60,289 nt of DNA from an uncultured Methanosarcinales archaeon (lineage in GTDB: Archaea > Nanobdellota > Nanobdellia > Woesearchaeales > JACPBV01), in contig CAZBLF010000004.1 in NCBI GenBank assembly GCA_964492935.1, positions 1-60,289 on the forward strand, given 5' to 3'. Position 1 is the stretch's first letter. Every line of letters begins with the position of its first letter. The notes under the pieces are model-generated. The model had not been told where the DNA came from and searched no databases. It worked only from the letters and a program-made list of their open reading frames with translations. This document shows, in pieces, positions 20,130 through 55,251 of this stretch. The position numbers were made by a program, and so were the translations under genes.

Positions 20130-20333
20130 ACCCTAAATAACAGTATAACCAATAAAAACCTTTGGATTTAAGATAAATCAAGAAGATGATTGTTTGGCCG
20201 GTTTCCACTGAGTCTTCCTAATGTTTCTTGGAGTTCTGACAGTCGTATTTGTTAACATAAGGCGATAAAACAACTCCACCACCTTTCTTGCGGATTCCCT
20301 TCTCGTCAATTACTAACTAATTGCTATAGCAGA

Positions 20334-20467
20334 GTATGTGCATAGCATCACCAGGTCGAAATTCATTGATACCTCAGAATTAAGTGCGTTGCGCGGGGTT
20401 GCCCCATCCGGGGACGCAGCACCTTCAGAAGTCAAGAGCAAGAATTTCGAAGGTGCTATGCACATAC
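20334..20467. mobile_element. Hairpin/MITE-like element, long type, copy C
   Basis: 16-bp terminal stem GTATGTGCATAGCATC/GGTGCTATGCACATAC; inner TCGAAATTC/GAATTTCGA; flanked by the exact direct repeat ATAGCAGA (20326-20333, 20468-20475). Confidence 0.75.
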
Positions 20468-20511
20468 ATAGCAGAGAAAGTTTTATATATCTCCTAACAT
20501 CGGCAGGGTAC

Positions 20512-20745
20512 ATGGGCGTGAAAACTTTAACCGAACGAGAGCAAGGATTGATTCTCAAGATGATTGAAACAACTATTATTTAGAATGGAAACCAATCAGA
20601 GGCAATTTTAAGATTAAAAAATGGTGATGCTGAAGGTTGCGCAGACCAATTATCCGCTTGTACAAAATTTCATAATCGACTTATTGAAATTATGAAGGAA
20701 CTAAGGAAAACTTTTGCCAAATTGGATAGCGAGGAATTCCAATAA
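20512..20745 (+). pseudogene. Small hypothetical gene interrupted by an in-frame TAG (20581-20583)
   Basis: BRE-TATA (GAGAAAG-TTTTATATA) about 22 nt upstream. The frame stays open 53 codons past the TAG to TAA. Confidence 0.55.
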
Positions 20746-20931
20746 CTATTTCTGCTTTCTTAAATAAAGATTGTAATATTGACATCCAACATATAACTGT
20801 TACAAGCACTAAAAAATCACACCATTATTTACCATCAAATTCTCAAGCACCCCAACAACGAGAAACGAGGGGGTCCTTTATTTACCCAAGTTTCAGATAT
20901 CTTTTTATAGCCACCATCACAATAAAAACCT

Positions 20932-21861
20932 ATGAAAAAACAGGTAAAAATAGTAGTTGCAGTGGCAATCACCATCGGCCTACTCTTCATTCTAGCACAA
21001 TCAATTACCTTACAAGCATTGAAAGAAGCCTTCCAATCCTTCTCACCAACCATCCTAGCAATAGCATTCATCGCATACCTCATCGCTAACTATTTTCGCG
21101 CAGCAAGATTCCAGGGAATGCTTGAAAAGCACATATCAACAAAAAACCTCTTCGGAATCGTCTGCCTACACAACCTATTCGCACAACTCCTACCTGCAAG
21201 AACTGGTGAAGTCAGTTTCCTAGTAATGATAAAGAAAAAAGGAATTGCAATAGAAAACAACATCGCAACACTAGGAATGGCAAGAATTCTAGACGCATTT
21301 GTTGTAGCTGCAATCCTAGTAGTAGGAATCCTAGCCCTACCCACCAAAGAAAACACTCTCCTAACGACATCAGTAGCTTTGTTAATACTGTTAGCACTAG
21401 GATTACTAACACTCTACGCTCGCCCCACCTGGATAACAAAGATCATAGAACTCATCCTACCCAACAAACCAGCATGGCTACAAACGATTAAAACTAAAAT
21501 CATAGGAACCATACACGCACTTTCCAAAATCCTCCACAACAAAGGAAAAATAAAACTCACCATCAACACCCTAGGCATCTGGCTTTTCATGTATATTTCA
21601 ACCATAGCACTGCTAAAAGCAGTCATCCCAGAAATCACCTTACTCGGCACCTTACTAGTAGCATCCCTACCCGTAATCGTATCAGCTCTACCCATCCACG
21701 GAGTTGCAGGCTACGGATCAACCGAAGTAGCCTACTTATTACCTTTAGTCTTACTAGGAATCTCATCAGAAACAGCCATTGCAGCAGGATTCGCTATTCA
21801 TACCATAGAATTAATCTTTATGCTAGTAGCTGCACCGTTAGGTCCGCTCTTCAACCGTTAA
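20932..21861 (+). CDS. UPF0104/LPG-synthase TM family (flippase-like)
   Basis: RAARF...LLPARTGE...ARILD...LPIHGVAGYGSTE. Confidence 0.85.
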   Translation: MKKQVKIVVAVAITIGLLFILAQSITLQALKEAFQSFSPTILAIAFIAYLIANYFRAARFQGMLEKHISTKNLFGIVCLHNLFAQLLPARTGEVSFLVMIKKKGIAIENNIATLGMARILDAFVVAAILVVGILALPTKENTLLTTSVALLILLALGLLTLYARPTWITKIIELILPNKPAWLQTIKTKIIGTIHALSKILHNKGKIKLTINTLGIWLFMYISTIALLKAVIPEITLLGTLLVASLPVIVSALPIHGVAGYGSTEVAYLLPLVLLGISSETAIAAGFAIHTIELIFMLVAAPLGPLFNR

Positions 21862-22986
21862 CGCCTTCTTCCACTTACCAACATACTGTTCCCAACTAAA
21901 CACGCGAGCATAATACTCTTTAGCACCGCTCCCAAGCGCCTCACGTTTACGAGCATCCAAAGCTAACTTCTCAACACCAGCAACTAAAGCATCAACATCA
22001 TTCGAAACAATAAGAGCATTAGTAGAATTCAAATGACACTTATGGGATTCAGTAGAAACCGCTAAAATTGCCTTACCAGCACGCAAGAACACCGTAACTT
22101 TAGACGGAAAACCATTATCCAAATATCGTAAAGAAAGTGCAATATCTCCCAAAGCAACCACGGAAGGCATCTCACTAAATTCAGGGCTATACGTAATAAC
22201 ATTAGCATACAAAGAAGGATCAAACAGTTTACGAATATCTCCATCACTTCCCGCAATCAAAAACTTAATGCGAGAAAAGATCTCATGCTTACTTTCCGAA
22301 ACAGCTTCTATCAAAGAAACCAACATCTCACTTCCCTGATAATGAGCTAAATTACCCATCCACAGTACAATAATATCGTTATTTTCAATACCGAGCTTCT
22401 TTCGAAGCGCAGCAACAGCAGCCATATCCGGCTTCTCGTTCCTATTAGCAGGCACCACCGGCATATCGAAACTAGCCACCGGATATCGCTCTTTCAAATA
22501 GGAAACTTCACGTGTAGTAATCGGAACCAACACATCAGCTCCTCGAAAAACAATCTTCTCATAACCACGAAGCAGAAAGCTCAACACCCCGCCAGGAGCA
22601 CCACTCTCATGCGGCAGACAGTGCATCCGATACACATGCCTTTTCTTAAACAGTTTACGTAGTATCAAACCCGGAAACGCACCATCCTCCAAACTAACAA
22701 TCTGAGAATATTTTTCACGCCTCATCAAAGAATAAGCCTTAGCAAACAGCAAAGGCATCAATACCAATTTACGAAGACTGAATCCTGGAGGCAGAGAAGA
22801 AAACGGATGCTTTACTCGATGAACGCTACAATGCTCTATAGTAGTAGCAGTCCCAATCGAAGTAGTAACCAAATCAACAGAATAACCACAAGAAACTATA
22901 GCACGAACAATATTCATGATAGCCAGTGGCGTACCCCGATTAATAACATAAGGTTGCGGACATAACAGAATAACTTTTTCTCTCAT
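21838..22986 (-). CDS. Glycosyltransferase family 4
   Basis: GTPL, GNLAHYQG, GFPSKV, FSWE motifs; start at MREKVIL. Confidence 0.85.
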   Translation of the reverse strand: MREKVILLCPQPYVINRGTPLAIMNIVRAIVSCGYSVDLVTTSIGTATTIEHCSVHRVKHPFSSLPPGFSLRKLVLMPLLFAKAYSLMRREKYSQIVSLEDGAFPGLILRKLFKKRHVYRMHCLPHESGAPGGVLSFLLRGYEKIVFRGADVLVPITTREVSYLKERYPVASFDMPVVPANRNEKPDMAAVAALRKKLGIENNDIIVLWMGNLAHYQGSEMLVSLIEAVSESKHEIFSRIKFLIAGSDGDIRKLFDPSLYANVITYSPEFSEMPSVVALGDIALSLRYLDNGFPSKVTVFLRAGKAILAVSTESHKCHLNSTNALIVSNDVDALVAGVEKLALDARKREALGSGAKEYYARVFSWEQYVGKWKKALTVEERT

Positions 22987-22987
22987 C

Positions 22988-23917
22988 TTAAGCAAATTCC
23001 TTCCGGTACCAAGCAACCGTCTCAGAAATTCCATCTGGTAATGAAGTAGGAGGTTCCCACTCCAGAATCTTCTTCATCTTCTCAGCAATCAAAATCTTTT
23101 TCATAGCGCCATCCGGTTTATCCGTAGCATACGTAAACGAACCTGCCCATCCAGCCTTTTCTTTAATCATTTCAGCCAATTCACTAATCGAAACACCTTT
23201 AGTAACCCCAATGTTCATCACATCGTTAGCAGAAAACGAATCAAAACGTGAAATCGATTTAACAATAGAATCGGCACCATCCTCAACATACAACCACTCC
23301 CGAATCGGTTTACCCGAACCCCAAATCTCGATGGTATCATCACCGTTCTTCTGAGCCTCCATGATCTTCTTCAGTAAAGCACCTAAAGCATGACTCCGAA
23401 TAGGTTCAAAATGATCGTTAGGACCATACATGTTAGGAAAGATCAAATGAACCGGTCTAAAATCAGCATCCTGTTTACAATAAGACAAACAAGCACCCCA
23501 TAACAATCTACGAGGCATAGCATAACTCAAAATAGATTCATGTACTGCACCATCCCAAAGCAAAGACTCCTCGTATTCTCCCAATTTGCCAGGATACACA
23601 CAGTTAGGCACAACATTCAGCACCTTCTTAATACCAGCCGCATGACACGCCTTAATCAAATTCAATCCAATATGAACGTTATCCTCGAAAATCTCAACCG
23701 GATGCAATGCATTGTACCCAATACCTCCAACATGAGCAGCACAATGTACAACCAATTCCGGCTTCTCCGCATCCAAGAACGTCTTAAACGCATCAAAATC
23801 ACGAATATCAATACCCTCGCTCCGACTACAAGAAACAACCTCGTGTCCAGCCTCCTTCAATTTAGGAAGAAGTGCTTTCCCCAAAAATCCAGTGCCACCT
23901 GTTACAACGACCTTCAT
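22988..23917 (-). CDS. GDP-L-fucose synthase-like epimerase/reductase
   Basis: AAHVGGIGYN, CVYP, NMYGPND, IWGSGKPIREWLYVED, KPDG. The YxxxK motif is altered to YAMPR. Confidence 0.85.
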   Translation of the reverse strand: MKVVVTGGTGFLGKALLPKLKEAGHEVVSCSRSEGIDIRDFDAFKTFLDAEKPELVVHCAAHVGGIGYNALHPVEIFEDNVHIGLNLIKACHAAGIKKVLNVVPNCVYPGKLGEYEESLLWDGAVHESILSYAMPRRLLWGACLSYCKQDADFRPVHLIFPNMYGPNDHFEPIRSHALGALLKKIMEAQKNGDDTIEIWGSGKPIREWLYVEDGADSIVKSISRFDSFSANDVMNIGVTKGVSISELAEMIKEKAGWAGSFTYATDKPDGAMKKILIAEKMKKILEWEPPTSLPDGISETVAWYRKEFA

Positions 23918-24996
23918 GCATAAAACTCCTTGATAGCCTTACAAATGGCATCAATCTGTTCATCAGTAACCTTAATGGATGACGGCAACCACAATCCGCG
24001 CGAAGCAAAGTCTTCAGTAACCGGAAACGAACCCGAAACAGAATAAGCTTCCTGCGAATGAATAGGTGGATAAATGGGACGACTACCAAATCCCTTCTCC
24101 TTAAGAAAAGCAATCAACTCATCACGTCGAGAAACATAAACATCCATGAACCAAGGTGCAGTATTCTCTAAATCAGTAGCAATAAACGAAACCGAATCAA
24201 CACCTGCTAACCCAGACTGATATCGCTTAAACATCTCCTTCTTACGAGCAACTCTATCAGCCAGTTTCTTCATCTGCTCAACCCCAATCACAGCCTGCAT
24301 ATCAGTAAATTTGAAATTGTACCCAATCGAATCGTGGAAATCATTTCCGCCACCCGATCTGCCAAAGTCCTTCAACTTCCGCATCTTCTCATAAAGTCCA
24401 TCATCATCCGTAATCAAAGCACCGCCCTGACCCGTGGTAATAATCTTAGGAGCGCTAAACGAGAAACTACCAATCTGACCATACCGACCAATATGTTTGC
24501 CCTTAAAGAAACTTCCAAGCGACTGAGCCGCATCCTCAATAAAAAACAAACCATGCTTCGAACAAAATTCCTTTACTTCAAGTAAATCATTAGTCCGACC
24601 ATTAAAAGAAACATGAATCAGCGCCTTAGTTTTATCAGAAACCATTTTTTCAGCAGCATCTAAATCCATACAAAGAGTATCAGCTGAAACATCAACAAAC
24701 CGAGGCACACCTCCAATCATTATAGCCGAATTAGGAGTAGCAATCATCGTCATGTCAGGAACCAAAACTTCATCCCCAGACGTAACACCAGCAGCAAGTA
24801 AAGCAAGTGACAAACTAATCGTACCATTATTCGTAACCACACAATGCTTAGCCCCTGTAAAATCACAAATCATCTTCTCAAATTCCTCGGTCTTCTTAAA
24901 TTCAGTCAACCAAGCACCAGAAGACAGATATGAATTCATAGCAGAAACTTCAGCAGCATCAATAACCGGCTCCATCTGCGGAATGAAATCACTCAT
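23914..24996 (-). CDS. DegT/DnrJ/EryC1/StrS sugar aminotransferase (perosamine synthase-like)
   Basis: IEDAAQSLG, SFSAPKIITTGQGG, GYNFKFTDMQA motifs. Confidence 0.92.
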   Translation of the reverse strand: MSDFIPQMEPVIDAAEVSAMNSYLSSGAWLTEFKKTEEFEKMICDFTGAKHCVVTNNGTISLSLALLAAGVTSGDEVLVPDMTMIATPNSAIMIGGVPRFVDVSADTLCMDLDAAEKMVSDKTKALIHVSFNGRTNDLLEVKEFCSKHGLFFIEDAAQSLGSFFKGKHIGRYGQIGSFSFSAPKIITTGQGGALITDDDGLYEKMRKLKDFGRSGGGNDFHDSIGYNFKFTDMQAVIGVEQMKKLADRVARKKEMFKRYQSGLAGVDSVSFIATDLENTAPWFMDVYVSRRDELIAFLKEKGFGSRPIYPPIHSQEAYSVSGSFPVTEDFASRGLWLPSSIKVTDEQIDAICKAIKEFYA

Positions 24997-25408
24997 CAGA
25001 AATCACCTCCTTATCCTTTTCAATTCCGGGGTAGGGACCATTCTTAACCTCAAAAACCTCGGTACCATCCTCTAAAATATGATATGAATGACCGCCAAGC
25101 ATCACTAAAATTGCCTGACCCTCTTTAACCACATACGTACCAATAACCGATTCATCCTCAGCATACAAAGTAACCTCTAATGAACCCTTCTTCACATACA
25201 CAAATTCCTGTGTAATGGTAGAGACACGCTCACAAACCTTGTGCGAATGAGGCGCGGTAACATGACCGGCATCATACTTCCAAGATCCCACCTGAACAAA
25301 CTTCTCGTCCTCAGTATAAAACGACAAACCAGAACCTAAATTATTACCATCTATAATACGCGCATACTCCTTGCCCGAATGTTCAATCTTCTGCATATTC
25401 TCGACCAT
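24989..25408 (-). CDS. Cupin-fold protein (sugar-nucleotide isomerase-like)
   Basis: PHSH...TQEF...GGH...EVKNGPY; GGAG RBS before MVENMQ. Confidence 0.75.
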   Translation of the reverse strand: MVENMQKIEHSGKEYARIIDGNNLGSGLSFYTEDEKFVQVGSWKYDAGHVTAPHSHKVCERVSTITQEFVYVKKGSLEVTLYAEDESVIGTYVVKEGQAILVMLGGHSYHILEDGTEVFEVKNGPYPGIEKDKEVISDE

Positions 25409-25412
25409 CGTT

Positions 25413-26336
25413 TTAGTATCTCCTGTAAGTATATAATGTTTTATCCTTGTAATAATTCTTAACACAAATATCCGCAATAATACCCGATACAATCAAGTTC
25501 AATCCAATCAACACTAAAAAGATCGCAATCGTAGGTAAAAAAGTATTAGATAAATCAACATCCTGCATAATCTTCAAGTAAATGGAAATCATACCAGCTA
25601 CAAATCCCATAAAACCTACAGAAAGACCAAGAAAACCAAACACGTGAATGGGCCTATTAGAGTATTTCTGCCAGAACCACACCAAAATCAGATCCATAAA
25701 GCCCTTAAACAAACGAGACATCGAATATTTAGTCTTACCATGCTTCCGAGCACGATGATTGACCTTAATCTCTCCAACTCTATAGCCCTTCCAAGTAAGA
25801 AGAGCAGTAATGTAACGATGCATCTCTCCAAATAAACGAATATCCTTAACACTTTCAGCACGATACACTTTCAACGAACATCCAGAGTCATGAATTCTCT
25901 CACCCGTCAACCATCTCCTAAGAGGATTAGCAATCGAAGAAAAGAATCTTTTGGAAAAGGAATCATGCCTATCTTTTCTCCATCCACTAATAGCATCATA
26001 CTTATCAGTTAAAGCATCTAACATTCTAGGAATATCTTTAGGATCATTCTGCAAGTCACTATCCATAACAACAATAACATCACCTGAAGCTTCTTTAAAG
26101 CCAGCCTCCCATGCCGAGCTCTGACCAAAGTTTCGTCTAAACCGCAACGCTACAACAGAGCTATCTTTCTTCTTCACCTGCATAATCTGCTTGAACGTAT
26201 CATCCGAAGAACCATCATCAATAAAGATAATCTCATACGTATGCTTCATCGAATCTAATACTGATTTCAACTCAGAATACAGAGGAATCACATTACCTGA
26301 TTCATTGTACGTTGGCAAAATAATGCTTAATTTCAT
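25413..26336 (-). CDS. Glycosyltransferase family 2 (ArnC/DPM-like) with C-terminal TMs
   Basis: DDGSSD, RRNFGQS, MDSDLQNDP, GEMHRY motifs. Confidence 0.92.
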   Translation of the reverse strand: MKLSIILPTYNESGNVIPLYSELKSVLDSMKHTYEIIFIDDGSSDDTFKQIMQVKKKDSSVVALRFRRNFGQSSAWEAGFKEASGDVIVVMDSDLQNDPKDIPRMLDALTDKYDAISGWRKDRHDSFSKRFFSSIANPLRRWLTGERIHDSGCSLKVYRAESVKDIRLFGEMHRYITALLTWKGYRVGEIKVNHRARKHGKTKYSMSRLFKGFMDLILVWFWQKYSNRPIHVFGFLGLSVGFMGFVAGMISIYLKIMQDVDLSNTFLPTIAIFLVLIGLNLIVSGIIADICVKNYYKDKTLYTYRRY

Positions 26337-26374
26337 GGTTGTAGAGGGTTAAAATTCGCTATATAAAGCTTCGC

Positions 26375-26848
26375 CTAACCCCGGGACCTCCTAATTATTG
26401 AAGTAGTAGAATAACCATCAAGTAAAGTAACCACATGAATTTTACCACCATTTTTGATAACCGTAGCAGCCTCAACACAATCCTCACCATAATCACTTCC
26501 ATTAACATGAACGTCCGGTTTCAACACCGAAAGTAACGCATCAGGAGTATCCTCTGAAAATAAAGTAACATGATCTACACAACCTAAACCTGCCAATACT
26601 CTAGCACGATCAACATCCGCATTCACCGGCCTACTTGAACCCTTATTCCTCTTAACAGAGGCATCAACATTAACACCTACAATCAACACATCACCCTGCC
26701 GTTTAGCTTCCTCCAAGAAAGCAACATGACCTGCATGTAATAGATCAAACGTACCATTCGTAGTAACAATCGTTTTACCAGATGATTTAAGACCTGCAAC
26801 TAATGCAACTAATGCATCTCTCGATGTAACCTTACTCTCAGTATGCAT
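26375..26848 (-). CDS. rfaE2: D-glycero-beta-D-manno-heptose 1-phosphate adenylyltransferase (HldC)
   Basis: TNGTFDLLHAGH, KGSSRPVN, STTSII motifs. Confidence 0.88.
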   Translation of the reverse strand: MHTESKVTSRDALVALVAGLKSSGKTIVTTNGTFDLLHAGHVAFLEEAKRQGDVLIVGVNVDASVKRNKGSSRPVNADVDRARVLAGLGCVDHVTLFSEDTPDALLSVLKPDVHVNGSDYGEDCVEAATVIKNGGKIHVVTLLDGYSTTSIIRRSRG

Positions 26849-27800
26849 GCTCAATCTCCTCCTTCAAATGATCGTGACTACAAGATGAAGTTCCAATCTT
26901 ACCAACAACAATCCCAGCAGCGTGATTAGCAAGCAACGCAGCATCCTCCATCGTCGCTCCAGCACTAATCGCAAGAGCCATCGTAGCAACAACCGTATCT
27001 CCCGCTCCAGAAACATCATACACCTCTTTAGCCTTCGTCGGAATCTCAGATTTCACGCCATCGGCCTGGAACAATCCCATTCCCCGCTCTCCCATCGTAA
27101 TAAGCACATCAGAGCCCAACGTACTAACCAAATGCTCACCAATAGCATCCATCTCACTCTTTCCAGCGGCCATCTCCTCGGCCTCCTTCATATTTGGAGT
27201 AATCAACCGAGCACCCGCATACCATGCAGCGTGTTTAGGTTTAGGATCAACAATAATAGGAGCATCCGTCAACTCCTTAATAGACTTCAAAACATTTTCA
27301 GTAATAACCCCTTTAGCATAATCAGAAACAATAATAGCATCAATATCCTTCAACAAAGGACTAATCTTATCCAATAACAATTTCTCAACATCAGCCGTAA
27401 GATAGGTATCCATCTCATGATCAAAACGAATCAGCTGCTGATTCTGAGCCATAATCCGCGTTTTCTTAGTAGTAGGTTTAGAAGCATCCTGAACAATACA
27501 ATGGGTATCGATCCGACGCTTCAACATCCCATTAGTTAACGAAACACCTGCACCATCATTACCAACAACACCGGCAACAAAAACCTGACCACCTAAACTA
27601 GCAACATTACTAGCAACGTTAGCCGCACCTCCAGGAATGAAAGCCTCCTTCTCAACGCGAACAACCTGCACCGGTGCCTCAGGACTAACCCGCGTAACTC
27701 CACCGAAAATATAGGCATCGAGCATAACATCCCCTATCACAAGGATCTTTTTCTGCTTGAATCCCTCCAACAACTTCAATAACTTAGGCTTCATGAGCAT
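26838..27800 (-). CDS. rfaE1: D-glycero-beta-D-manno-heptose-7-phosphate kinase (HldA)
   Basis: GDVMLD, RVSPEAPVQV, GGAANVA, SDYAKG, DVSGAGDTV motifs. Confidence 0.92.
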   Translation of the reverse strand: MLMKPKLLKLLEGFKQKKILVIGDVMLDAYIFGGVTRVSPEAPVQVVRVEKEAFIPGGAANVASNVASLGGQVFVAGVVGNDGAGVSLTNGMLKRRIDTHCIVQDASKPTTKKTRIMAQNQQLIRFDHEMDTYLTADVEKLLLDKISPLLKDIDAIIVSDYAKGVITENVLKSIKELTDAPIIVDPKPKHAAWYAGARLITPNMKEAEEMAAGKSEMDAIGEHLVSTLGSDVLITMGERGMGLFQADGVKSEIPTKAKEVYDVSGAGDTVVATMALAISAGATMEDAALLANHAAGIVVGKIGTSSCSHDHLKEEIEHAY

Positions 27801-28683
27801 CTAACCATGCGAAATAATCCGCAATCGCCTCCTTGAGTTTCCATTGAGCAGTATATCCGAGCTCTGAACTAGCCAAATCAACCGAGGCATGCGTATGAAC
27901 CTGATATACCGAAGTATACGGATTAGCAATCCATCTCTCCGGCTTAGAACTACCCAAAACCGACTGCACCATGCGTAACACATCAACAAACGGAGTCGCA
28001 ATTCCAGTCCCAACATTATAAATTCCAGATGCACTAGCATCTAATGCCTTAACGGTAGCTGAAACAACATCCTTAACATAAATATGATCTCGCTTCTGTT
28101 CTCCTTCCTTAAAAATACCAGGATCCTCTCCAGCAAGAATTTGTTTTCTCCACTGATAAATCATGCTGCTACTAGCACCCTTCCCAGCTTCACGCATCCC
28201 AAACACGTTAAAGTACCGCAAACCAACAACAATCAACGCATCACCCTGTTCTTTAGCAAGAGCATCCATTTCAGCTTTCGACCGAGAGTAAGCATTCAAA
28301 GGTTCAACAGATTGACTTTCTTTCATAGGAACATCCCCGTTCCCATACACTCCAGCCGAGCTAATATACACAAGTTTAGCTTTCTTATCAAGCGCAAGCT
28401 TCAAAACATTCCTAAATCCAGAAACATTCTGACGCACCATCTCCTTATCATCAGTAAAAGTAGTATCCGTAATCGAAGCCTCATGAATAATGGCATCGAA
28501 ATCTTCTTCCAAAGTAAACGGCTGCGAAACATCAATATCCAAAATACCGCCATCAAAACCAACTAGATTTTCCTCATGACCAGAACTCAAATTATCTAGT
28601 ACCGTAACATCATGCTCATCCTTCAATGCATGCACAATATTAGAGCCAACAAAACCAGCTCCACCCGTAATAAGAACCTTCAT
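27784..28683 (-). CDS. hldD: ADP-L-glycero-D-manno-heptose 6-epimerase
   Basis: GGAGFVGSN, ITDTT, PLNAYSRSK, GLRYFNVFG.RE.GKG motifs; clustered with hldA/hldC. Confidence 0.85.
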   Translation of the reverse strand: MKVLITGGAGFVGSNIVHALKDEHDVTVLDNLSSGHEENLVGFDGGILDIDVSQPFTLEEDFDAIIHEASITDTTFTDDKEMVRQNVSGFRNVLKLALDKKAKLVYISSAGVYGNGDVPMKESQSVEPLNAYSRSKAEMDALAKEQGDALIVVGLRYFNVFGMREAGKGASSSMIYQWRKQILAGEDPGIFKEGEQKRDHIYVKDVVSATVKALDASASGIYNVGTGIATPFVDVLRMVQSVLGSSKPERWIANPYTSVYQVHTHASVDLASSELGYTAQWKLKEAIADYFAWLDAHEA

Positions 28684-28747
28684 TTTGAACTACCTCCCAA
28701 ATAATGGATATTCAAATTGAAGGCTACGAACGATAGTGAGTATGTTT

Positions 28748-29125
28748 TCATTCAGCATCCTCCGGAATGTCTAAGGTAGAAAGATCAACAGCACCACTAT
28801 CCACACTCCGATACGAGTCAGAATCTTCGTGATGCGTACTAAATTCAAAAATTTCACTGTCTTCTAAACCCGTAAAGCGATGCTTTGTATTGGGAGTAAT
28901 CAATAACGACTGCCCTGGAACCATAATCTGCGTTTCATCGCCCAGTTCCATCAATACTTTACCTTTAGTAACATAAAAAGTCTCATCTTTATTCTTGTGC
29001 TGATGCACACTACATCTAAATCCTTTCTTCAATTCCAGAATCTTGCCACAATACTCTTTGTTGACAACCCAAATCTCCTTACCCCATACTTTTTCAACTT
29101 CTTTGTGTTTCGTAACGACATCCAT
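28748..29125 (-). CDS. Cupin-domain protein (phosphosugar isomerase-like)
   Basis: KVWGKEIW...CSVHQHKNKDETF...HRF...EFSTHH. Confidence 0.8.
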   Translation of the reverse strand: MDVVTKHKEVEKVWGKEIWVVNKEYCGKILELKKGFRCSVHQHKNKDETFYVTKGKVLMELGDETQIMVPGQSLLITPNTKHRFTGLEDSEIFEFSTHHEDSDSYRSVDSGAVDLSTLDIPEDAE

Positions 29126-29137
29126 GCTATCACCTTC

Positions 29138-29158
29138 TGGTATGAACTATTCATACCA
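29138..29158. promoter_or_regulatory. Palindromic operator candidate of the heptose operon
   Basis: TGGTATGAA-CTA-TTCATACCA, a perfect 9-bp IR between the minus-strand TATA (~29174-29181) and the cupin RBS. Confidence 0.6.
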
Positions 29159-29258
29159 TACACTCAATGCACTATATAAAGCTTACGCTTTAAACCAGCT
29201 TTCCTCACTAGAAAGAGGATACAAAAGTACTTATACTAGTATACCATTGCATACTTTA

Positions 29259-30008
29259 GTGAAAAAGACCAAGATAGCAATCTCCATAAACCCAAACCTA
29301 CTCACTCAGATAGATGCCAAAGTAGATGGCTCAATTATCCGATCACGTTCCCAAGCAATGGAATATTACCTCCAAAAAGGTCTCAAAGAATCTTCTATCA
29401 CCACAGCCGTCTTACTAATCCGCGGCTCTCACCACAACATCTCACTAAAAACCCTCAATAACACCACATTACTCCAACAACAAATCCAATTCTTCGCAAG
29501 TAACGGAATAAAAAAAGTCCTCATCGTAACCCAACACTCAAATCTAACGAATAAACTGCTTTTAGAAACAGAAAAAGCAAAAATCGAAACCATCATTATA
29601 GAAAAAGAAGCAAAAGGCAACGCCCAAGCCCTAGCTGCAATCAAAGAACAGCTTCCAGACGCATTTCTAGTAATGTCCGGCGACACCTACAACAAGTTCG
29701 ACCTCACCAAAATGATAAAGAAGCATCTAGAAGCCGACAAACTAGCATCTATGGGATTAATGACCAGATCAAAAACCGCAACCTACGGAAACGCCATCCT
29801 TGACGGCGACTTAATCATCGATTTCCAAGAAAAACCAAAAACAAGCGCATCAAATATCGTCAATGCCGGAATCTACATCTTCAAAAAAGAAGTCTTCGAA
29901 CTCTTCGAGTCATCAAGTTCATTAGAAAAAGACATCTTTCCAAAAATAGCAAGAATAAAACAATTATTAGGCTTCTTTACCCATGGAGAGTATGAACATC
30001 TAGAATGA
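29259..30008 (+). CDS. RHH DNA-binding domain fused to a degenerate sugar-phosphate nucleotidyltransferase domain
   Basis: GTG start; KIAISINPNLLTQID...RSRSQAME RHH; then FLVMSGD, QEKP, VNAGIY, SLEKDIFP, but no GxGTR motif. Confidence 0.8.
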   Translation: MKKTKIAISINPNLLTQIDAKVDGSIIRSRSQAMEYYLQKGLKESSITTAVLLIRGSHHNISLKTLNNTTLLQQQIQFFASNGIKKVLIVTQHSNLTNKLLLETEKAKIETIIIEKEAKGNAQALAAIKEQLPDAFLVMSGDTYNKFDLTKMIKKHLEADKLASMGLMTRSKTATYGNAILDGDLIIDFQEKPKTSASNIVNAGIYIFKKEVFELFESSSSLEKDIFPKIARIKQLLGFFTHGEYEHLE

Positions 30009-30871
30009 ATGTAATCACTCAAACCTTATTACCGACCTTTCTCATCATAGCAGTAGGGTATTTCATAGGAAAGAAAAAGAAAGTAAACCTAGAACCGTTC
30101 ACCGATCTCATCATCTACATCACAGGACCAGCCCTCATCCTATTCTCCATAGCAAAATCAACTCTAGACCTAAACAACGCAGCGAAAATATCACTTTCAT
30201 CGTTATTAGTAATCCTAGGAATGGGAACCATCACATTCATCCTACTCAAACTAACAAAATCAAAGAAACGCGGCCTCTATCTACCGATAACCGTAGGCAA
30301 CACAGGATTTCTAGGATTTCCTATAGCACTCTTCGCCTTCGGTAACGAAGGACTAGCCAGAGCAATAGTATACGACATCACCAACGCAATATTAATATTT
30401 ACCGTCGGTATTTACCTCATCAGCAAGCATTCAGACATCAAGGAAGCGTTCAAACTACCCCTCATCTATGCAGCAGTTCTTGGAATAATACTCAACATTA
30501 ACAAAATCCCCATCCCAAAAACCCTAGCAACCCCTCTTGAGATGATCGGACTCACCACAATACCTTTAGCACTCATGATTCTCGGCTACAACCTAACAAA
30601 AATAAAGATAACCTCCTTCAAAACCACCGTAGGCGCCTCACTCCTAAGAATCCTAGGCGGATTCACCTTTGCATTCATCATCACCTCACTTCTAGGGCTA
30701 GAAGGCATCGATCGAGGAATAGTACTCATCCTAGCCGCACAACCCTCAGCCATGATGTCGATGATTCTCTGCCAGAAATACCACCAAGACGCAGAACTAG
30801 CAGCATCCATAGTCTTCGTCAGCACCCTCATCAGCATCATCTCCATTCCCATCATTCTTTCAATAGCCTAA
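30005..30871 (+). CDS. AEC (auxin efflux carrier) family transporter
   Basis: GNTGFLGFPI motif, about 10 TM. Confidence 0.88.
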   Translation: MNVITQTLLPTFLIIAVGYFIGKKKKVNLEPFTDLIIYITGPALILFSIAKSTLDLNNAAKISLSSLLVILGMGTITFILLKLTKSKKRGLYLPITVGNTGFLGFPIALFAFGNEGLARAIVYDITNAILIFTVGIYLISKHSDIKEAFKLPLIYAAVLGIILNINKIPIPKTLATPLEMIGLTTIPLALMILGYNLTKIKITSFKTTVGASLLRILGGFTFAFIITSLLGLEGIDRGIVLILAAQPSAMMSMILCQKYHQDAELAASIVFVSTLISIISIPIILSIA

Positions 30872-30908
30872 CACAAACTTATTTAAACGAAATTCGAATT
30901 CTAAACAC

Positions 30909-31796
30909 ATGCAAACAACAGATAAGATCTGGATGGACGGAAAGCTAGTACCTTGGCAAGACGCCAAAATCCACGCAGTTTCTCACGCCCTTCATTATGG
31001 CAGCAGCGTCTTCGAAGGAATCAGATGCTACAAAACAGAACAGGGCACAGCAATTTTCAAACTTAAAGAACACGTCGAAAGATTATTTCTGTCAGCAGAA
31101 ACTCTGCAAATGAAGGTACCGTTCTCCAAAGAGGAAATAGAACAAGCAATTAGAGAAACGGTAAAAGTAAATAAGCTAGAGGCAGGCTACATCCGCCCTT
31201 TAATTTTCTACGGCTACGGCAAGATGGGTCTAGATCCTGTAGGAGCACCCGTAAATGTACTGATTGCAGTCTGGCCCTGGGGAGCCTACCTAGGAAATGA
31301 AGCAGTTAAACTAAAGACCGCAGAAACAATAAGACTCCATCCAAAATCATTCAAACCCGAAGCAAAAGTAGGCGGATTCTATGTCAACTCCATCTACGCC
31401 CACCAGGAAGCAAAAAAAGCAGGCTTTGACGAAGCACTCATGCTGGACTACGAGGGCCACGTAGCGGAAGGACCAGGCGAGAACATCTTCATGATGAAAG
31501 ACAACAAGCTAATAACTGCAAAAACCGGATCCATCCTCCCAGGAATCACGAGAAGCACCATCCTACAAATAGCTAAAGACAACAATATCGAAACCGAGGA
31601 GCGCATCATAACTCCAGAAGAGCTCAAAGCTGCTGATGAAGTCTTTGTAGTAGGAACCGCAGCCGAAGTAACCCCCGTCAAGCAAATAGATGATACTATT
31701 CTCAACACCCACGAAAAAGCAGAGTTCTTCCGCACCACCTATCTCAACATCGTACAAGGAAAAGACGATACATACAAAGACTGGCTCACCTTCTGA
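30909..31796 (+). CDS. ilvE: Branched-chain amino acid aminotransferase
   Basis: HALHYGSSVFEGIR, AKVGGFYVNS, EGPGENIF, ILPGITR, GTAAEVTP motifs. Confidence 0.95.
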   Translation: MQTTDKIWMDGKLVPWQDAKIHAVSHALHYGSSVFEGIRCYKTEQGTAIFKLKEHVERLFLSAETLQMKVPFSKEEIEQAIRETVKVNKLEAGYIRPLIFYGYGKMGLDPVGAPVNVLIAVWPWGAYLGNEAVKLKTAETIRLHPKSFKPEAKVGGFYVNSIYAHQEAKKAGFDEALMLDYEGHVAEGPGENIFMMKDNKLITAKTGSILPGITRSTILQIAKDNNIETEERIITPEELKAADEVFVVGTAAEVTPVKQIDDTILNTHEKAEFFRTTYLNIVQGKDDTYKDWLTF

Positions 31797-31877
31797 AATC
31801 TAACAAGAATTCTGAAGATACTATCTACCTGCATTCTAATCAATATCTTTAAGTACCCCGTTCCCTAATAACACCCT

Positions 31878-32291
31878 ATGAACAAAGCACTTCTAGTTAT
31901 GAACATAGTAGCAGCGTTTGTAACCATTAACATTCTCATCGCCGAACCAAGTGTAACCGGCCACGCCGTAGCCGAAGATGACCTCTTCACCGTAAGCAAA
32001 CCAGTCAAATTAGCAGTGGTAGTCATCATCTTAACATTAATCGCAGACGTAGTAGTCTATGCAGCCGAACTTAAGAAAGCAGAACTTAAGAAATTAGGAT
32101 CCTCAATAAAAAGTAAAGTAGAAAAAAGCGTAAAGCTAGATATCAAGAGCCAAAAATCAAAAAAACAAGGAAAAATGCTCCGTCTACACACAACCAAGCC
32201 CCAGCCACGCAAGAAGACTGCCCCAAAGAAACCATCAAAAGCTAAAAAGAAAAAACCAAAAAAGAAAGTGGGAAGGCGCACCAAAAAATGA
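31878..32291 (+). CDS. Hypothetical 2-TM protein with VTGHAV motif and Lys-rich tail
   Basis: 137-aa ORF with an upstream TATA; its 3' end overlaps the SRP RNA 3' end in antisense. Confidence 0.65.
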   Translation: MNKALLVMNIVAAFVTINILIAEPSVTGHAVAEDDLFTVSKPVKLAVVVIILTLIADVVVYAAELKKAELKKLGSSIKSKVEKSVKLDIKSQKSKKQGKMLRLHTTKPQPRKKTAPKKPSKAKKKKPKKKVGRRTKK

Positions 32292-32542
32292 GCACAAACC
32301 TATACAGCTGGCTAACCTCAAAAGTTTCTCCACTCCGCTACCCGCAGAGCATCAACACAATAATTTAAGGCTGCTTCATTCCTGATCTCACCTGGTTCAC
32401 TAAAGCATTAATCCCTATGGACAGAGTTTCAACGTCACAGTTGAGACCAACCGCATAAGCAATGCCGCTTCTCCGGCTTCGACTCCTCTAAAGCGCGTTC
32501 AAGGTAACAGAAGAGCGCTACACTCCCAGCCTAGCCTTCCCA
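32269..32542 (-). ncRNA. ffs: Signal recognition particle RNA (Alu domain + helix 5 + helix 8, no helix 6)
   Basis: Minus strand: TGGGAAGGC/GCCTTCCCA closing helix; Alu hairpins with complementary loops AGCGC/GCGCT and TGTTA linker; long G-U-rich helix 5; GAACCAGGTGAGATCAGGAATGAAGCAGCC SRP54 site with GGAA tetraloop; TATA 22 nt upstream. Confidence 0.92.
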
Positions 32543-32563
32543 ACAACCAAAAACCAAACTTCT

Positions 32564-32578
32564 TTTTTAAAGCTTTAG
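32564..32578 (-). promoter_or_regulatory. BRE-TATA of the SRP RNA gene
   Basis: Minus strand CTAAAGC-TTTAAAAA about 22 nt before the predicted 5' end. Confidence 0.65.
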
Positions 32579-32585
32579 AATTGCA

Positions 32586-32745
32586 GTAACTGCTAACGGC
32601 ATAAAGTCAAAACTCCCTCATATCGAGAGAAAGCTCGTCACAGGGGTTGTTGCTGTTGCGAGAAGCTCACTTCTTGCTCGCTTCAAGGACGGGACGTAGA
32701 GCCATCAGTCCGAAGAGTAAGAGTTTTGAAGCCGTAAGCAGTTAC
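32586..32745. mobile_element. Hairpin/MITE-like element, long type, copy A
   Basis: GTAACTGCTAACGGC...GCCGTAAGCAGTTAC IR; inner TCAAAACTC/GAGTTTTGA; flanked by GAATTGCA / GAATTACA (7/8 direct repeat). Confidence 0.8.
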
Positions 32746-32756
32746 GAATTACAGCA

Positions 32757-35700
32757 CTACTTCTTTCTCTTCCCCAAATGCCGATGAACACGCATTCGAG
32801 TATAGTGATGCTTCGCATGCACATGCACATGCAACACATGACGCAAAGTCAAGCGCAGATAATGCCAAGGCCTCTTCCACAGTGCCTTAGGAGCACCCTC
32901 CATGAAGTGTCCAACATACAAGCGATGCATCCGATCATGAGCTTTCCGAGCAGCTTTAACATTACCTTTCTTCAGATGACCTCTAACCGTCTTCCGCAGC
33001 ATCTTCATCTTGAACAACGGATGATCAAATCGCATTACCCGTTTACGATGCCTCTTAACCCGCTTCCACAAGTACCGCTTGATAAAGAAGTTATGCTTCC
33101 CCGATTCAATCGTGGCATAATGTCTATTCAATTCCCGATACAACGCATGAGCCTCTTCAACACGCCTTTTCCGCGTGTAGTGCTTCAAAGACTTGTGCAC
33201 CTTCAAGAATCGAGCAAACTTCTTGTTGGTATGCACGAAACCAAAGAATGCCAATTTGTTCAGCAAGAATGCACCGATAATCATCAACAAGATCCTGAGT
33301 ACTTGTTTGGGAGTAATCGATTTAAACGAGAATCCATCGAAACAATCGATTGGACAATTCAATTCATCCTCTCCCTGTCCACACACACCGTTTCCACACT
33401 TACATCCCGTAGCGTCAAAGGTAGCATCATCCGAAATCCGCTGTCCCACCAAAATAAATCTATCCTTGCTCGAACAATCACCAATGTGAAGATCATAATA
33501 CAACGTATTTCCTACAGCAGTCTCCACACCAGAAGCGATAATTTCACGAGCAATAATCTTCTCAATTAATTTTCGTGAGACCTCCTCATCAATCAAACCG
33601 GTGTGAGTCACATTAATATCCCAATAATTGGTACATCTATTATTGATATACTCGTCTCCAATCCGCTGCGCACTCTTAATAGTGACCAACCCATCATGAG
33701 ATTGGTTTGTCGCCTCAATATCGAGCAAATTACCAAATTGCTGAGTATTCGTTCCCGCAATAACGAAATAATCAACTCCAGGCAATCGCGGACTAACAAG
33801 CCCCTCTTTCAGCACATCAATCAGCTGGTTATTGACGTTAAACAGGTTGTTATACTTACTGACTCTATTCACCAAGAACTTATACACTTTCAGATAATCT
33901 TCGAGGAAGGCAGCCCCCTCATTCGGAACACCCGCCAAAATAACTTTCTTCACCTTCGGGATAAAGGTATACTTCTGCGTAACATTATTCGCGACAAACG
34001 CATCATGCAACGTTTTCTGCGCCACAATCCCCCCTAGACTGTGTGCAGCAATGTACAAGTTATCAAATTCATCAACATTCAACTCAATACTATCCATCAG
34101 GTCCTGGGTAATATCTGCTATCGGGCGCGTACTACTATATCCATACGTCCACGCCTGGAATGGCTGCTCCGTCAACTCAATATCTGCAATGATATCCTCA
34201 AACGTATCCGGACTGCTCGTAAATCCGTGAACCAGCAACACAGCATCTCTAGTCGTCCCGTTATACACCTTCTCGAACGAACTATTCAGACAGAACTCAC
34301 AGATCGACCCCATAATAGCAAACAATCCTACGCTTTCATTGTCCAGATACTGTTCAATATCCTCAATTTCAGCCGTGACCGTTAGTGCATCCTGATCTAT
34401 TACCCCGCCCAACGGATTCCATTCATCGTTAGCACGAGCAAAGATCTGCAATCCCTCAACATCAATATTCTTAGTTTGCTCCTCCAAATACGACAAAGTC
34501 AACGTACTCGTGCTCGTATCCTCGATCCGTAGATGCGAAGGACTACCAATAATTTTCAGGAACTCATTCTTTGCCTCCTCAACAGTTTCATTTCGAGCAA
34601 CAAATTCAACCCCGTCAACCGTAACATTGCCCTCGCTCAGATTCACATCTACGGTTTCCTCTTCCAATTCCGAACGCTTAAACTTACCCGTCTCCGAGTC
34701 AAAGCACTCTAACCGAGAGGTCAAATTAATCAGCGAAGGAACACACACATCGCCCGTACATCTGAGCATCGTCAAGTTCACAAACTGTTCCGGAATACTG
34801 ACCGTGAAATCAATCTCATGCCCAGCACACTGAATGCGGAACGGATCCAATACCACCTGATAACCAAGAGGAACATCAGTCTCTTCAACAATAGATTGGA
34901 GGATACTAATATCGCTCCCTTTGCCTCCCGAAACACGCCTACACGGCAAGGTTGCAGCACTCAATTCAAGGCCGTATCGAGATCCCGGCGACGCCAACGA
35001 AATCGATGCAGCCGCAGCAGCCGCAGCAGCCGCAGGTGCTGCAGCCGCAGCAGGAGCGGGAGCAGCACTATATGCTATAGGACAACTTCCACAATCCGTT
35101 CCACAACCACTACACGTCTCAGCACCATTACAGGAACCATCTCCACACCAATCACAATCAGCCTTACAACTCGTCGCCTCACTCGCACCACAGTATCCAT
35201 CTCCACAGTACAAGGAAGCACCCACGTCAACATAAATCTCCTCCGATAAGTTATATTCAGAATCATTGAACGTTACCGTCATAAAGACAGCATCAGTATA
35301 ATCTAAAGCAGGAGTAAAGGTAGCAATCGAGGTAGTCTGATTAATCACCACACTCACCGTGCTCGAACTATTGCCTGTAATATTGAACGACAGCACATCA
35401 CCATCCGGATCCGCGTAATACTGTGTCAAGGTAATAGATTTAGCAGTATTCTCCCCTACACTAAGCGTTAGCAAACTGTTATTTACAAAAGGAGGACTAT
35501 TCAAGATCGTCAACGTCTCACTAAATGCTGGCGTCCCATTATCAAACGTATCGTCAGCCGTCGCCGAAACATTAACCAGATCTCCCTTCGAGAAATTCTC
35601 CGCATTAAACGTACCACTAATAGCAAAGCTACTCTGTGTCAACGAATCAAACGTCTCATTAAACACCGGAATACTATTCACATACCAGGTAAAGGTAATA

Positions 35701-46253: not shown

Positions 46254-46264
46254 TTCTTGCAAAC

Positions 46265-46726: not shown

Positions 46727-46773
46727 ACTCAATTTCAAGAAACTAAGTTATTTAAGGTTTATGGCGAGAGATA

Positions 46774-49898: not shown

Positions 49899-49899
49899 A

Positions 49900-50592: not shown

Positions 50593-50639
50593 ACTCTACC
50601 CCAATAATCTTTATAAAACCACGATTACCTCTCTTTATC

Positions 50640-51515: not shown

Positions 51516-51516
51516 C

Positions 51517-52077: not shown

Positions 52078-52135
52078 CTGCAACACAGAAAACCTTATAT
52101 AGCAATTCTTCTAAAGTCAATAACGGTGATGTTAA

Positions 52136-52742: not shown

Positions 52743-52809
52743 AAATCCAGCTGTAACCCTATCGGATTCTTCGTACCACAACCAAAACATCTATAGGTAT
52801 CTACCAACC

Positions 52810-53682
52810 TCACAACAAATCAATATTAAAGAAAATTCTAATAAAGAAACCAATTCCGAACGTAATCAAAGCAACCCCTAAGCTCAATCCAGCCATCTCA
52901 AAGAACTTATGTGCAAACGAAACCTCCTGCACAATAGAGATATAGAATGTAAATACTAAAATCACAATCAACGCATTAGTAATCGTCCACAATAAAGCAA
53001 AGAATGGATTTGATAAAACAAAGTAAGGAAACACCAAGAAGAATACCGTAATAAGATAAGCAATTCCAGTATACCAGGCAGCTGTAAAGGGAGGTTTCTT
53101 CGAACCTTCCGCCTTTATTGACAAATACTCGGAAGCAGCCATCGAAAAAGCAGCCGCAATTCCCGTTATCAACCCAGCTATAGCCACTAACGTAGTTTTC
53201 TGAAACGCCAAGGTCAATCCTGCTAAGGCACCCGTCAATTCAACAAGAGCATCATTCAACCCTAGCACAATAGAGCCCGCATACAGTTTAGCCTTATCAG
53301 AAAGCAACCGAATCAACCGAGCCTCATGACCAGCCTCATTCTCCTCAATCTTTTTAGCAGCAGGAATCGCATCATAAATGGTATTACATTCTTTTTCAGT
53401 TAAATCCTCTTTTTTCTCCATCAATTTAATCCCAAAGAGTAACCCAAAACAACGAATCAAGAAGGAATACCAAAATACTTTCAGATGACTAGGCTCAACC
53501 TCCTGTTTAGAAAACTTTTTCCAAAAGTCATGGTGCAGCATCTCATCTTTTGCCAAATGTTCAAGCAATTTCTTATTTTTAGCATTACGAGTACGCTTAG
53601 CCAGGTTAGTATACACCTGATACTCACTCAACTCATTCCGTTGAGCTTTGAGAATTAACTTCATGACTGCTGCACTAACCAT
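52810..53682 (-). CDS. Rubrerythrin-like + VIT1/CCC1 iron exporter (MbfA-like)
   Basis: E..E, DEMLH, EAGHE; VLGLNDALVE, SMAASEYLS motifs. Confidence 0.88.
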   Translation of the reverse strand: MVSAAVMKLILKAQRNELSEYQVYTNLAKRTRNAKNKKLLEHLAKDEMLHHDFWKKFSKQEVEPSHLKVFWYSFLIRCFGLLFGIKLMEKKEDLTEKECNTIYDAIPAAKKIEENEAGHEARLIRLLSDKAKLYAGSIVLGLNDALVELTGALAGLTLAFQKTTLVAIAGLITGIAAAFSMAASEYLSIKAEGSKKPPFTAAWYTGIAYLITVFFLVFPYFVLSNPFFALLWTITNALIVILVFTFYISIVQEVSFAHKFFEMAGLSLGVALITFGIGFFIRIFFNIDLL

Positions 53683-53735
53683 ACCCTTATCAGATCTCAA
53701 ACATATATAAGATTTACTATACGATTACCGTAGGT

Positions 53736-53761
53736 GAGTTCCGCCATGCCTCAGCGTTATC
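53736..53761. repeat. Degenerate right arm of the short hairpin element
   Basis: GAGTTCCGCCATGCCTCAGCGTTATC resembles AAGTACGCCGTGCCTCAGCAGTATC (7111-7135). Confidence 0.45.
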
Positions 53762-53818
53762 ACCACACATCAAGAAAAGCTAACCTTTTTATAGAAATCA
53801 CAGTTAACAATCGTTAAG

Positions 53819-54403
53819 ATGGAAACCAAACTAGAACCAAAAATCAGCAAAGACATGCTTATTGGAGAGATTGTCCTAAAATATCCCAAAGCTGCTGAAC
53901 AACTAACGAAAGAAGGAGTTCACTGCGTAGGATGTGGGGCAGCTACTCATGAAACCATCGAGCAAGGCCTCGCAGGCCACGGAATATCTCCCGAAGAGAT
54001 AGAAAAAGTAGTGGGGAGATTAAACGAATCAGTAAAAGACATAGAACCAAAACCCGATTTCAAAGCAACTTCAACCGAAGATTCCGTTAATATCACTCAA
54101 GACGCGGCCGATAAAGTAAAAGAACTCATCGAAAAGCAAAAAGAAGATTATATCGGTCTAAGAATCAGCGTCATGGCCGGTGGATGTTCCGGATTCCAAT
54201 ACGGATTCGAATTTGCAACAGAGAAAAACAAAGACGACAGAGAATTCGAAATTAAAGGTACTAAATTCTTCATGGATCCCGAATCATTTGAAATGATTAA
54301 AGGATCAAAAATCGAGTATGTAGATGCATTAGAGGGAGCAGGTTTCAAAATAACCAATCCAAACGCATCACAAAACTGCGGCTGCGGAAAATCTTTTAAT
54401 TAG
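53819..54403 (+). CDS. DUF1858 + IscA/HesB A-type Fe-S carrier fusion
   Basis: GVHCVGCGAA.HETIEQG; GGCSGFQY; CGCGKSF. Confidence 0.9.
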   Translation: METKLEPKISKDMLIGEIVLKYPKAAEQLTKEGVHCVGCGAATHETIEQGLAGHGISPEEIEKVVGRLNESVKDIEPKPDFKATSTEDSVNITQDAADKVKELIEKQKEDYIGLRISVMAGGCSGFQYGFEFATEKNKDDREFEIKGTKFFMDPESFEMIKGSKIEYVDALEGAGFKITNPNASQNCGCGKSFN

Positions 54404-54407
54404 ACTT

Positions 54408-54570
54408 CTGACTGCTAACAGCATAAGGTCAAAACTCTATCAATTTCAAAGTCGAGCTCGTCGCGAGGGGTCGCTGCTGCTGCGAGAAGGAGCTTCTCGC
54501 TCGCTTCAAATCACGGGAACGCCGAGCATACAGAATACGAAGCAAGAGTTTTGAAGCTATAAGCAGTCAA
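54408..54570. mobile_element. Hairpin/MITE-like element, long type, copy B
   Basis: TGACTGCTAACAGC...GCTATAAGCAGTCA IR; clearly homologous to 32586-32745 along its length; flanks TTAGACTT/CTAGAATC (5/8). Confidence 0.8.
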
Positions 54571-55251
54571 CTAGAATCCTATTGTGTTCCACAAAATCAA
54601 TACTAAGTCTACGAATAAGAACATTCCAATCAAGAAATACATAGGGTGACCCTCTCGTTCTCGTGGCAAGCTCTCTCGAACCACCATATACAAGAGTGCG
54701 CCTCCAACAATACCCAGCAAAGAGATATTCATAAATTCAGTAGTCTCAACAATCGTTCCCAGCAAAGCACCGATAAAAGGAGCACTAGAAAAAAAAGCCT
54801 TCTGAAGGTAGTGTTTAGTCATCTTCTTCGGCAGACTATCAATAGCGATGTGAAACGTTAACGGAACAAATAACAAAATACCCTGCAACACATCCCGCTC
54901 CACCAAATTAATCAAAACAAAACCCACAACCAACGAATAGAAGAAGGAAGTAACTAAATGCACCTGCCCATGCAATCGCGTATACGACCGCGTACCATTC
55001 CGCTGCCGAATATACTTCTCAACCAAATGAAACACAGCAAATCCAAACAATAAAGGAAAGAACAACAACGGATTCAAACTACTAGCCCCGATATAAATCT
55101 CCGGCAACAAAATCAAGAACAAATACGAAACCGAAACACCCGCTGCAAACGAAATAAAGCGCATCTTCTTGCCATCGGGGATCCTAAACATCTCCTCAGT
55201 AACAAAATCTACAATTCCCAATACAAAAGCAAGCAAATATCCAAGCGCCAT
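54571..55251 (-). CDS. ZIP-like metal transporter-related membrane protein
   Basis: SFAAGVSVSYLFL.LLPE, FHLVEK, GGALLYMVVRESLP motifs. Confidence 0.75.
   Translation of the reverse strand: MALGYLLAFVLGIVDFVTEEMFRIPDGKKMRFISFAAGVSVSYLFLILLPEIYIGASSLNPLLFFPLLFGFAVFHLVEKYIRQRNGTRSYTRLHGQVHLVTSFFYSLVVGFVLINLVERDVLQGILLFVPLTFHIAIDSLPKKMTKHYLQKAFFSSAPFIGALLGTIVETTEFMNISLLGIVGGALLYMVVRESLPREREGHPMYFLIGMFLFVDLVLILWNTIGF

Follow-up and report, generated by a model that had tools for sequence, protein, structure and literature searches.

The window analysed here is the whole of a 60,289-nucleotide stretch of DNA, contig C4 (CAZBLF010000004.1) of an archaeal metagenome-assembled genome (MAG) referred to as G000 (1.15 Mb in 57 contigs, 84.8% complete, 42% G+C). 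It contains three intergenic hairpin elements, E1, E2 and E3, belonging to a family of non-coding MITEs (miniature inverted-repeat transposable elements). These are probably moved by a transposase of the IS66 type and mostly land at the edge of promoters, a reading to which, taken jointly, a probability of roughly 0.8 is given. The family is an undescribed one of a known kind, the structured MITEs, and is unusual in that its core outlives the termini and in that integration abuts the TFB recognition element (BRE) and TATA box of the archaeal promoter. What is new is the IS66 partner, the promoter-edge rule and an independent double hit at the promoter of the signal recognition particle (SRP) RNA gene.

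Copies of the elements were sought in the MAG using BLAST, nhmmer and R1, a covariance model for which 23 distinct copies had served as input. The family comprises 31 copies in G000, all matched by one strand model. E1-type ends are present on 13 of these, including nine identical 134-nt copies which lie on nine contigs, and all nine are enclosed by perfect 8-bp duplications whose sequence differs from locus to locus. A further five copies have ends of the E2/E3 type. Four longer copies have other termini and 9-bp duplications enclosing the inner remnant of the usual terminal stem, and in this class a second set of ends seems to have made the core mobile again. Members of the longer class were noted at L090-L093, L149-L151, L177 and L186 and, in G000, at C21:6219, C27:7761 and C23:15209. 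The remaining nine copies are more diverged or decayed. A core of ∼105 nt is common to all 31 copies; the termini are not. Among the relatives, 41 copies whose boundaries could be drawn have 7–9 of 8–9 bases duplicated. The original prediction had proposed, from the letters of the window, a non-autonomous mobile family of the IS66 type, and this is borne out by the nine identical copies with perfect duplications and by an insertion sequence (IS), described below, which has the same 13-nt termini and an IS66-family transposase. The copies beyond the window and the choice of targets at promoter edges had been missed. Perfect 8-bp duplications of unrelated sequence exclude palindromic elements derived from IS200/IS605 (PATE), which make no target duplication and use a short specific motif. 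Integron attC sites, in which structure is kept and sequence is not, were also excluded given that the copies are dispersed and have target duplications.

The elements of the window and the features beside them are listed here by window position.

20326 to 20333, no strand: left 8-bp target-site duplication of E1, 8/8 with 20468 to 20475
20334 to 20467, + strand: E1, a MITE of 134 nt, one of the nine identical G000 copies; it has the 13-nt terminal inverted repeats of the partner IS
20468 to 20475, no strand: right 8-bp target-site duplication of E1, 8/8 with the left copy
20476 to 20489, + strand: 6-nt BRE-like spacer and TATA-like octamer facing away from E1, the octamer starting 14 nt past the end of E1
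32270 to 32541, − strand: archaeal SRP RNA gene (RF01857, 119.1 bits, E 1.7e-26), context of E2 and outside the element
32564 to 32577, − strand: TATA-like box and 6-nt spacer of the SRP RNA promoter, abutting the E2 duplication; 30 nt downstream of the box is the 5′ end of the SRP RNA (32541)
32578 to 32585, no strand: left target-site duplication of E2, 7/8 with 32746 to 32753
32586 to 32745, + strand: E2, a MITE of 160 nt whose subfamily has GTAAC termini; it carries an additional hairpin module at its apex
32652 to 32687, + strand: optional apical hairpin module of E2, ∼36 nt, in place of the C-run (ends approximate)
32746 to 32753, no strand: right target-site duplication of E2, 7/8 with the left copy
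54400 to 54407, no strand: putative left duplication of E3, decayed, matching 54571 to 54578 at 5/8
54408 to 54570, + strand: E3, an older MITE of 163 nt from the subfamily of E2, between two convergent open reading frames (ORFs), with its apical module at ∼54473 to 54509
54571 to 54578, no strand: putative right duplication of E3, decayed, matching the left copy at 5/8

The positions and lengths of the three elements (134, 160 and 163 nt) were confirmed, as were the flanking direct repeats of 8/8, 7/8 and 5/8 that had been claimed for them. The common anatomy is also real: each has a stem at its termini, a loop of 6 nt facing a lone A, the helix TCRAAAYTC/GARTTTYGA and an inner arm containing GGGGT. 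Each folds into a single long hairpin, with energies of −51.0, −59.6 and −51.4 kcal/mol for E1, E2 and E3 and z scores of −4.89, −4.52 and −2.29, respectively, against dinucleotide shuffles. The terminal bases are complementary at 8/8 positions in E1 and E2 and at 7/8 in E3, and the terminus letters are GTATGTGC in E1 and the partner IS and GTAACTGC in E2. Elements of 134–163 nt have no coding capacity, and the ORFs that cross them are spurious. An ORF of 2660 amino acids (window 32757 to 40739, − strand) begins its reverse-strand reading right beside E2.

Evidence for the partner came from the ends of contigs. Four G000 contig ends (C8, C12, C20 and C56) stop 54 nt into an element which has the 13-nt start of E1 and a different interior. 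Scanning metagenome contigs with the 54-nt stub led to locus L071, where two types of stub bound an element of 1544 bp (L071:500-2043) with an inverted repeat of 13 nt only, starting GTATG. It carries two reading frames.

L071:703-1083: ORF1 of the partner IS, 126 amino acids, coiled-coil-like, with no convincing family match
L071:1080-2030: ORF2 of the partner IS, 316 amino acids, IS66-family transposase

ORF2 matches NF033517 (3.5e-71, 240.3 bits, cut-off 180) and PF03050, DDE_Tnp_IS66 (4.6e-40, 138.2 bits, cut-off 23.1). The two frames overlap in different phases, so that a programmed frameshift or a broken copy is possible. Eight full-length copies with the same ends, of 1525–1545 bp, were found in MAGs labelled Nanoarchaeota or Woesearchaeota. 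The original prediction had called for a transposase gene with matching ends, and the IS of locus L071 has been found to carry one; judged by its sequence, this autonomous element with the ends of E1 is a putative source of transposase for the MITEs. No R1 match was obtained in 16 IS-bearing loci (44,130 bases), thus MITE and IS have only the 13-nt ends in common. The IS end, sought by pattern in 40 relatives, was seen in G000 only. Two further groups of G000 contig ends have identical terminal sequence (C7, C37, C2, C15 and C26; C19, C44, C46, C41 and C49), which suggests that the MAG contains one or more further collapsed repeats, either an IS or an rRNA operon. Elements were also seen to pile up: at G000:C20:20781-20987 an E1 copy and an IS end are 18 nt apart, and in the congener G001 two MITE copies stand head to tail a few bases apart at L098 (C75) and at L087 (C84).

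The position of the insertions with respect to promoters was examined. TATA-like octamers in G000 peak 28–31 nt upstream of start codons. Past the duplication of all nine identical E1 copies there is a 5–7-nt purine-rich spacer and then a TATA-like octamer that points away from the element, which occurs in both orientations. When the motif was fixed and the boundaries were drawn algorithmically, the octamer was found 12–17 nt past the element end in 12 of the 21 reliably bounded G000 copies, and at exactly 14 nt in 11 cases, against a background of 3.4% among the 179,133 positions of non-coding DNA (P 6e-13, binomial). A non-blind reading of the flanks placed 22 of the 31 copies at a promoter edge, and for 10 of 31 an ORF pointing away starts 47–50 nt from the model hit. 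The same offset recurs on at least one side of seven of the eight full-length IS copies, the short contigs of which may be chimeric. E2 abuts the SRP RNA promoter in like manner, its duplication touching the spacer and the TATA-like box. In this arrangement the 6-nt BRE and the TATA box follow immediately downstream of the duplicated 8 bp, and the element lies at about −37 to −44 with the promoter intact. Among the relatives, copies with E1-type ends follow the pattern. Since it goes with these ends and does not hold in a differently ended subfamily, target choice seems to belong to the transposase lineage and not to the core. The differently ended subfamily of G004 and G012 (L115-L131, L152-L157) has other 13-nt ends and many perfect 8-bp duplications, and lies in G+C-richer DNA with no TATA-like box nearby.

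R1 matched 20 of 60 relatives, a tally which includes the unpublished genomes G005 and G013; 11 of the 13 in the same family were matched, and the matched relatives hold from 1 to 60 or more copies each. A draw of 150 further genomes from the phylum gave 20 with a match, all of the same order. The orthologous sites were compared in the congener G001. There, E1 is missing together with ∼700 nt around it, and E3 is missing. At the orthologous E2 site, the SRP RNA promoter, G001 has an insertion at precisely the position that E2 takes in G000; this insertion belongs to another subfamily, has ends of the E1 type and is framed by an 8/8 duplication of its own. The duplications at this site agree within each genome and differ between G000 and G001. 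This shows that the insertions postdate the divergence of the target and are independent events. The ∼700-nt segment around E1 (window ∼20170 to 20890), which is absent from the orthologous G001 intergenic region, contains no convincing ORF.

The conservation of the core was examined by aligning 104 R1 matches, taken from G000 and from eleven further genomes, and scoring 28 pairs over 102 distinct rows. Standard pairs fill 92.4% of cells as against 75.0 ± 0.4% in 500 shuffles, and both sides have changed in 485 cells as against 129 ± 9, although these pairing figures are inflated by kinship among the copies and by the fitting of the alignment to the model. Controls in which the partner was slid pair in 34–42% of cells and there are many discrete pair states, thus the helices are convincing despite this inflation. 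The claim that differences between copies are compensatory, the arms conserving pairing over sequence, therefore holds well beyond the three copies on which it was based. The core is built of helix P2, a 6:1 loop that is asymmetric, and an inner helix, the tip of which consists of a G-run, a C-run and a second G-run. In P2, 99.6% of cells pair, five of the eight pairs show double changes, and there is a single G.U in ∼800 cells. The inner helix consists in most subfamilies of 4 bp and 3 bp separated by a 3:1 bulge, and in one subgroup of a continuous helix of 7–8 bp. At the tip, the C-run pairs with the second G-run and shows real double changes (15 + 4). The first G-run mostly stays G and only wobble-pairs, yet it is among the most conserved positions. 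The tip therefore has one supported helix and, beside it, a G-run that is kept without pairing; a three-stranded tip is no more than conjectural. The U and G of the loop, the G-run and P2 are common to 47 clusters less than 75% identical. Compensatory change has preserved the core even as ends were exchanged or renewed, which makes the core the persisting unit.

Named motifs were considered for parts of the core. A kink-turn or an H/ACA-like identity for the 6:1 loop was rejected by inspection, the A-G/G-A being in the wrong order and the sequence variable (kink-turn rules being taken from general knowledge). A hammerhead-like CUGA...GAAA in one subgroup was rejected as its letters are missing from the other subgroups. 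At the tip, an apical hairpin of ∼36 nt replaces the C-run in five G000 copies of different subfamilies (E2, E3 and copies on contigs C25, C12 and C6) and may be a mobile or exchangeable sub-module. The same module was also seen in an unrelated hairpin at G000:C8:27812-27850.

The way in which such a family could spread can be outlined. An IS66-family DDE transposase encoded elsewhere would cut and paste the elements in trans, recognising their short terminal inverted repeats and making an 8-bp staggered cut. The transposase lineage with E1-type ends would pick its target relative to the archaeal core promoter, and may recognise either the BRE/TATA sequence itself or DNA bent by TBP and TFB. 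The core may act in cis as a DNA fold-back, a cruciform or a single-strand hairpin, that brings the short ends together and so helps the element to compete for transposase. This role for the core is a tentative best guess, with odds somewhat below even. Going further, the IS66 lineage and its MITEs might read the initiation complex as TBP/TFB-bent DNA, with the core a cis-acting structured nucleic acid that transposition needs or exploits. This fuller version is rated as rather unlikely; if true, it would explain how the core outlives repeated replacement of the ends.

Several results weigh against the proposed movement by an IS66-type transposase to promoter edges. As the original prediction had stated, there is no transposase in the window, and PF03050 found no match either there or anywhere in the G000 bin, from which the IS repeat has evidently been lost. 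A PF03050 transposase is present in 7 of 61 genomes, only three of which also have the MITE, although this co-occurrence is uninformative because bins lose repeats, G000 itself being without the gene even though four of its contig ends enter the IS. No matching duplications were seen around the full-length IS copies, the contigs of which are short and may join the flanks of different copies. On reading the flanks, 8 of the 31 G000 copies, E3 among them, lack an adjacent promoter, and in the GTATT-terminus subfamily adjacency was found for only 1 of 16 copies in G004 and 0 of 7 in G012. Selection against harmful insertions could contribute to the promoter-edge pattern. A clean empty site, which the original prediction had asked for, was only approached: G001 indeed lacks E1 and E3, yet both sites also differ by extra or missing sequence and neither is cleanly empty. 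Four metagenome DNA runs (X7-X10) gave no joint across E1 or E2 (19500 to 33500), the contigs breaking at E1. Finally, a fold-back accounts neither for the conservation of the first G-run and the loop letters nor for the keeping of both G-runs when the apical module replaces the C-run.

The original prediction had leaned towards a structured RNA on the + strand, and a structured non-coding RNA gene riding in transposon ends, with selection acting on the RNA and not on the DNA, would indeed agree with the deep covariation in P2, P3 and P4 and with the conserved unpaired letters of the loop and G-run across 47 clusters. Insertions of variable length are tolerated at the hairpin tip only, as in many RNAs, and in P1 G.U cells outnumber A.C cells by 31 to 14. 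However, the claim that G-T pairs favour folding of the + strand fails. The minus strands fold equally well or better (−56.9 vs −51.0 kcal/mol for E1, −57.0 vs −59.6 for E2 and −57.5 vs −51.4 for E3), and G.U is rare not only in P2 but overall (∼43 of ∼2,670 cells, one tip pair excluded). Nor is the orientation biased. With crude gene calls, the 31 G000 copies comprise 8 in sense tandem, 6 in antisense tandem, 8 between divergent genes, 5 between convergent genes and 4 unplaced. By reading, there is no TATA-like box inside E1. The search of Rfam, which had been suggested as a check, returned no family for the elements at the gathering score in the window or at E ≤ 10 on nine element-bearing loci. 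The distribution among genomes is patchy and the sites in the congener are not conserved, the lack of E1 and E3 there counting against a host gene. The core does not look like a host RNA gene, and constraint on a DNA palindrome or on both strands is favoured over an RNA gene on one strand, an explanation that has a low probability.

The pairing might alternatively have no function, being produced by intramolecular correction, through template switching or gene conversion in quasi-palindromes, together with bursts from a few master copies. Nearly pure Watson–Crick pairing and the equal folding of both strands are the DNA-level symmetry expected of such a process, and recent bursts are evident in the nine identical copies of G000 and the many 8/8 duplications of G004. 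Correction should, however, erase asymmetries, and the 6:1 loop and unpaired segments of ∼20 nt persist in all subfamilies, as does the 3:1 bulge of P3 in most; furthermore, the first G-run, although unpaired, ranks with the most conserved positions, and the core outlasts repeated replacement of its termini. Arm-to-arm correction, which the original prediction had also raised, on its own leaves the asymmetric loop and unpaired G-run of the 47 clusters unexplained, and an origin of the pairing without function is unlikely, if a little less so than the RNA gene. The least probable of the explanations weighed here is that P2 and the G/C-run tip are, as duplex, the inverted half-sites of a dimeric protein, either a host chromatin or transcription factor or ORF1 of the IS, with which they change in concert. 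P2 is an exact inverted repeat without wobble and occurs in discrete states (19:172 as GC or AU; 24:167 as UA, CG or GC), the elements lie at promoters, and the IS does encode the coiled-coil-like ORF1. Against this, the IS ends contain no sequence resembling P2 or the G-run, P3 covaries through many sequences in a way incompatible with a sequence-specific protein, and no candidate protein was identified. The cis-acting DNA fold-back is retained as the best guess for the core.

The family can be set beside known systems. Hairpin-forming MITEs of bacteria include the Correia elements of Neisseria, ERIC, bcr1 of Bacillus and RUP. Like these, the present elements are small, non-coding, intergenic and of high copy number, form a hairpin over their full length and show compensatory change in the stem. 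They differ in their archaeal host, their IS66-type ends with 8-bp duplication, the single asymmetric core found across differently ended subfamilies and their fixed position with respect to BRE and TATA. The eukaryotic element Ty3 integrates at Pol III start sites through TFIIIB. By analogy only, insertion would here likewise be at a fixed distance from an initiation complex of the TBP/TFIIB type with the gene spared; unlike Ty3, the present case is one of a DNA transposon, a DDE transposase and an archaeal host, and recognition of the BRE/TATA sequence fits the data equally. Literature searches gave nothing specific on this MITE family or on promoter-edge targeting by archaeal IS elements.

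According to the available text of PMC11946415, IS66 elements have 8-bp direct repeats and inverted repeats of 20–30 bp of the GTAAGCG type. The MITEs resemble this family in their 8-bp duplication and termini starting GTA, and the partner in its DDE_Tnp_IS66/NF033517 transposase. The partner differs from that available description in its inverted repeat of 13 nt, which starts GTATG and not GTAAGCG, and differs from the family in having two overlapping ORFs in different frames, with no genes like tnpA or tnpB seen. A further difference from IS66 elements and their MITE derivatives is that MITE and IS have nothing in common beyond the 13-nt ends. A census of prokaryotic MITEs places a Woesearchaea genome among the archaea of highest MITE density, at 105 per Mb (PMC11602168). 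The available part of this census describes neither the family nor its core, partner IS or target sites, and the supplementary sequences of the census may contain members.

Now that the partner IS and the 13-nt ends are known and a covariance model exists, the family can be annotated, which helps the assembly of MAGs, where contigs break at repeats, and avoids false calls of structured RNA genes. The genomes of DPANN archaea are tiny and gene-dense, and nevertheless dozens of their intergenic regions are occupied by this family. Landing at the promoter edge suggests how mobile DNA multiplies in small genomes without death of the host, and provides a testable case of promoter-guided integration in archaea.

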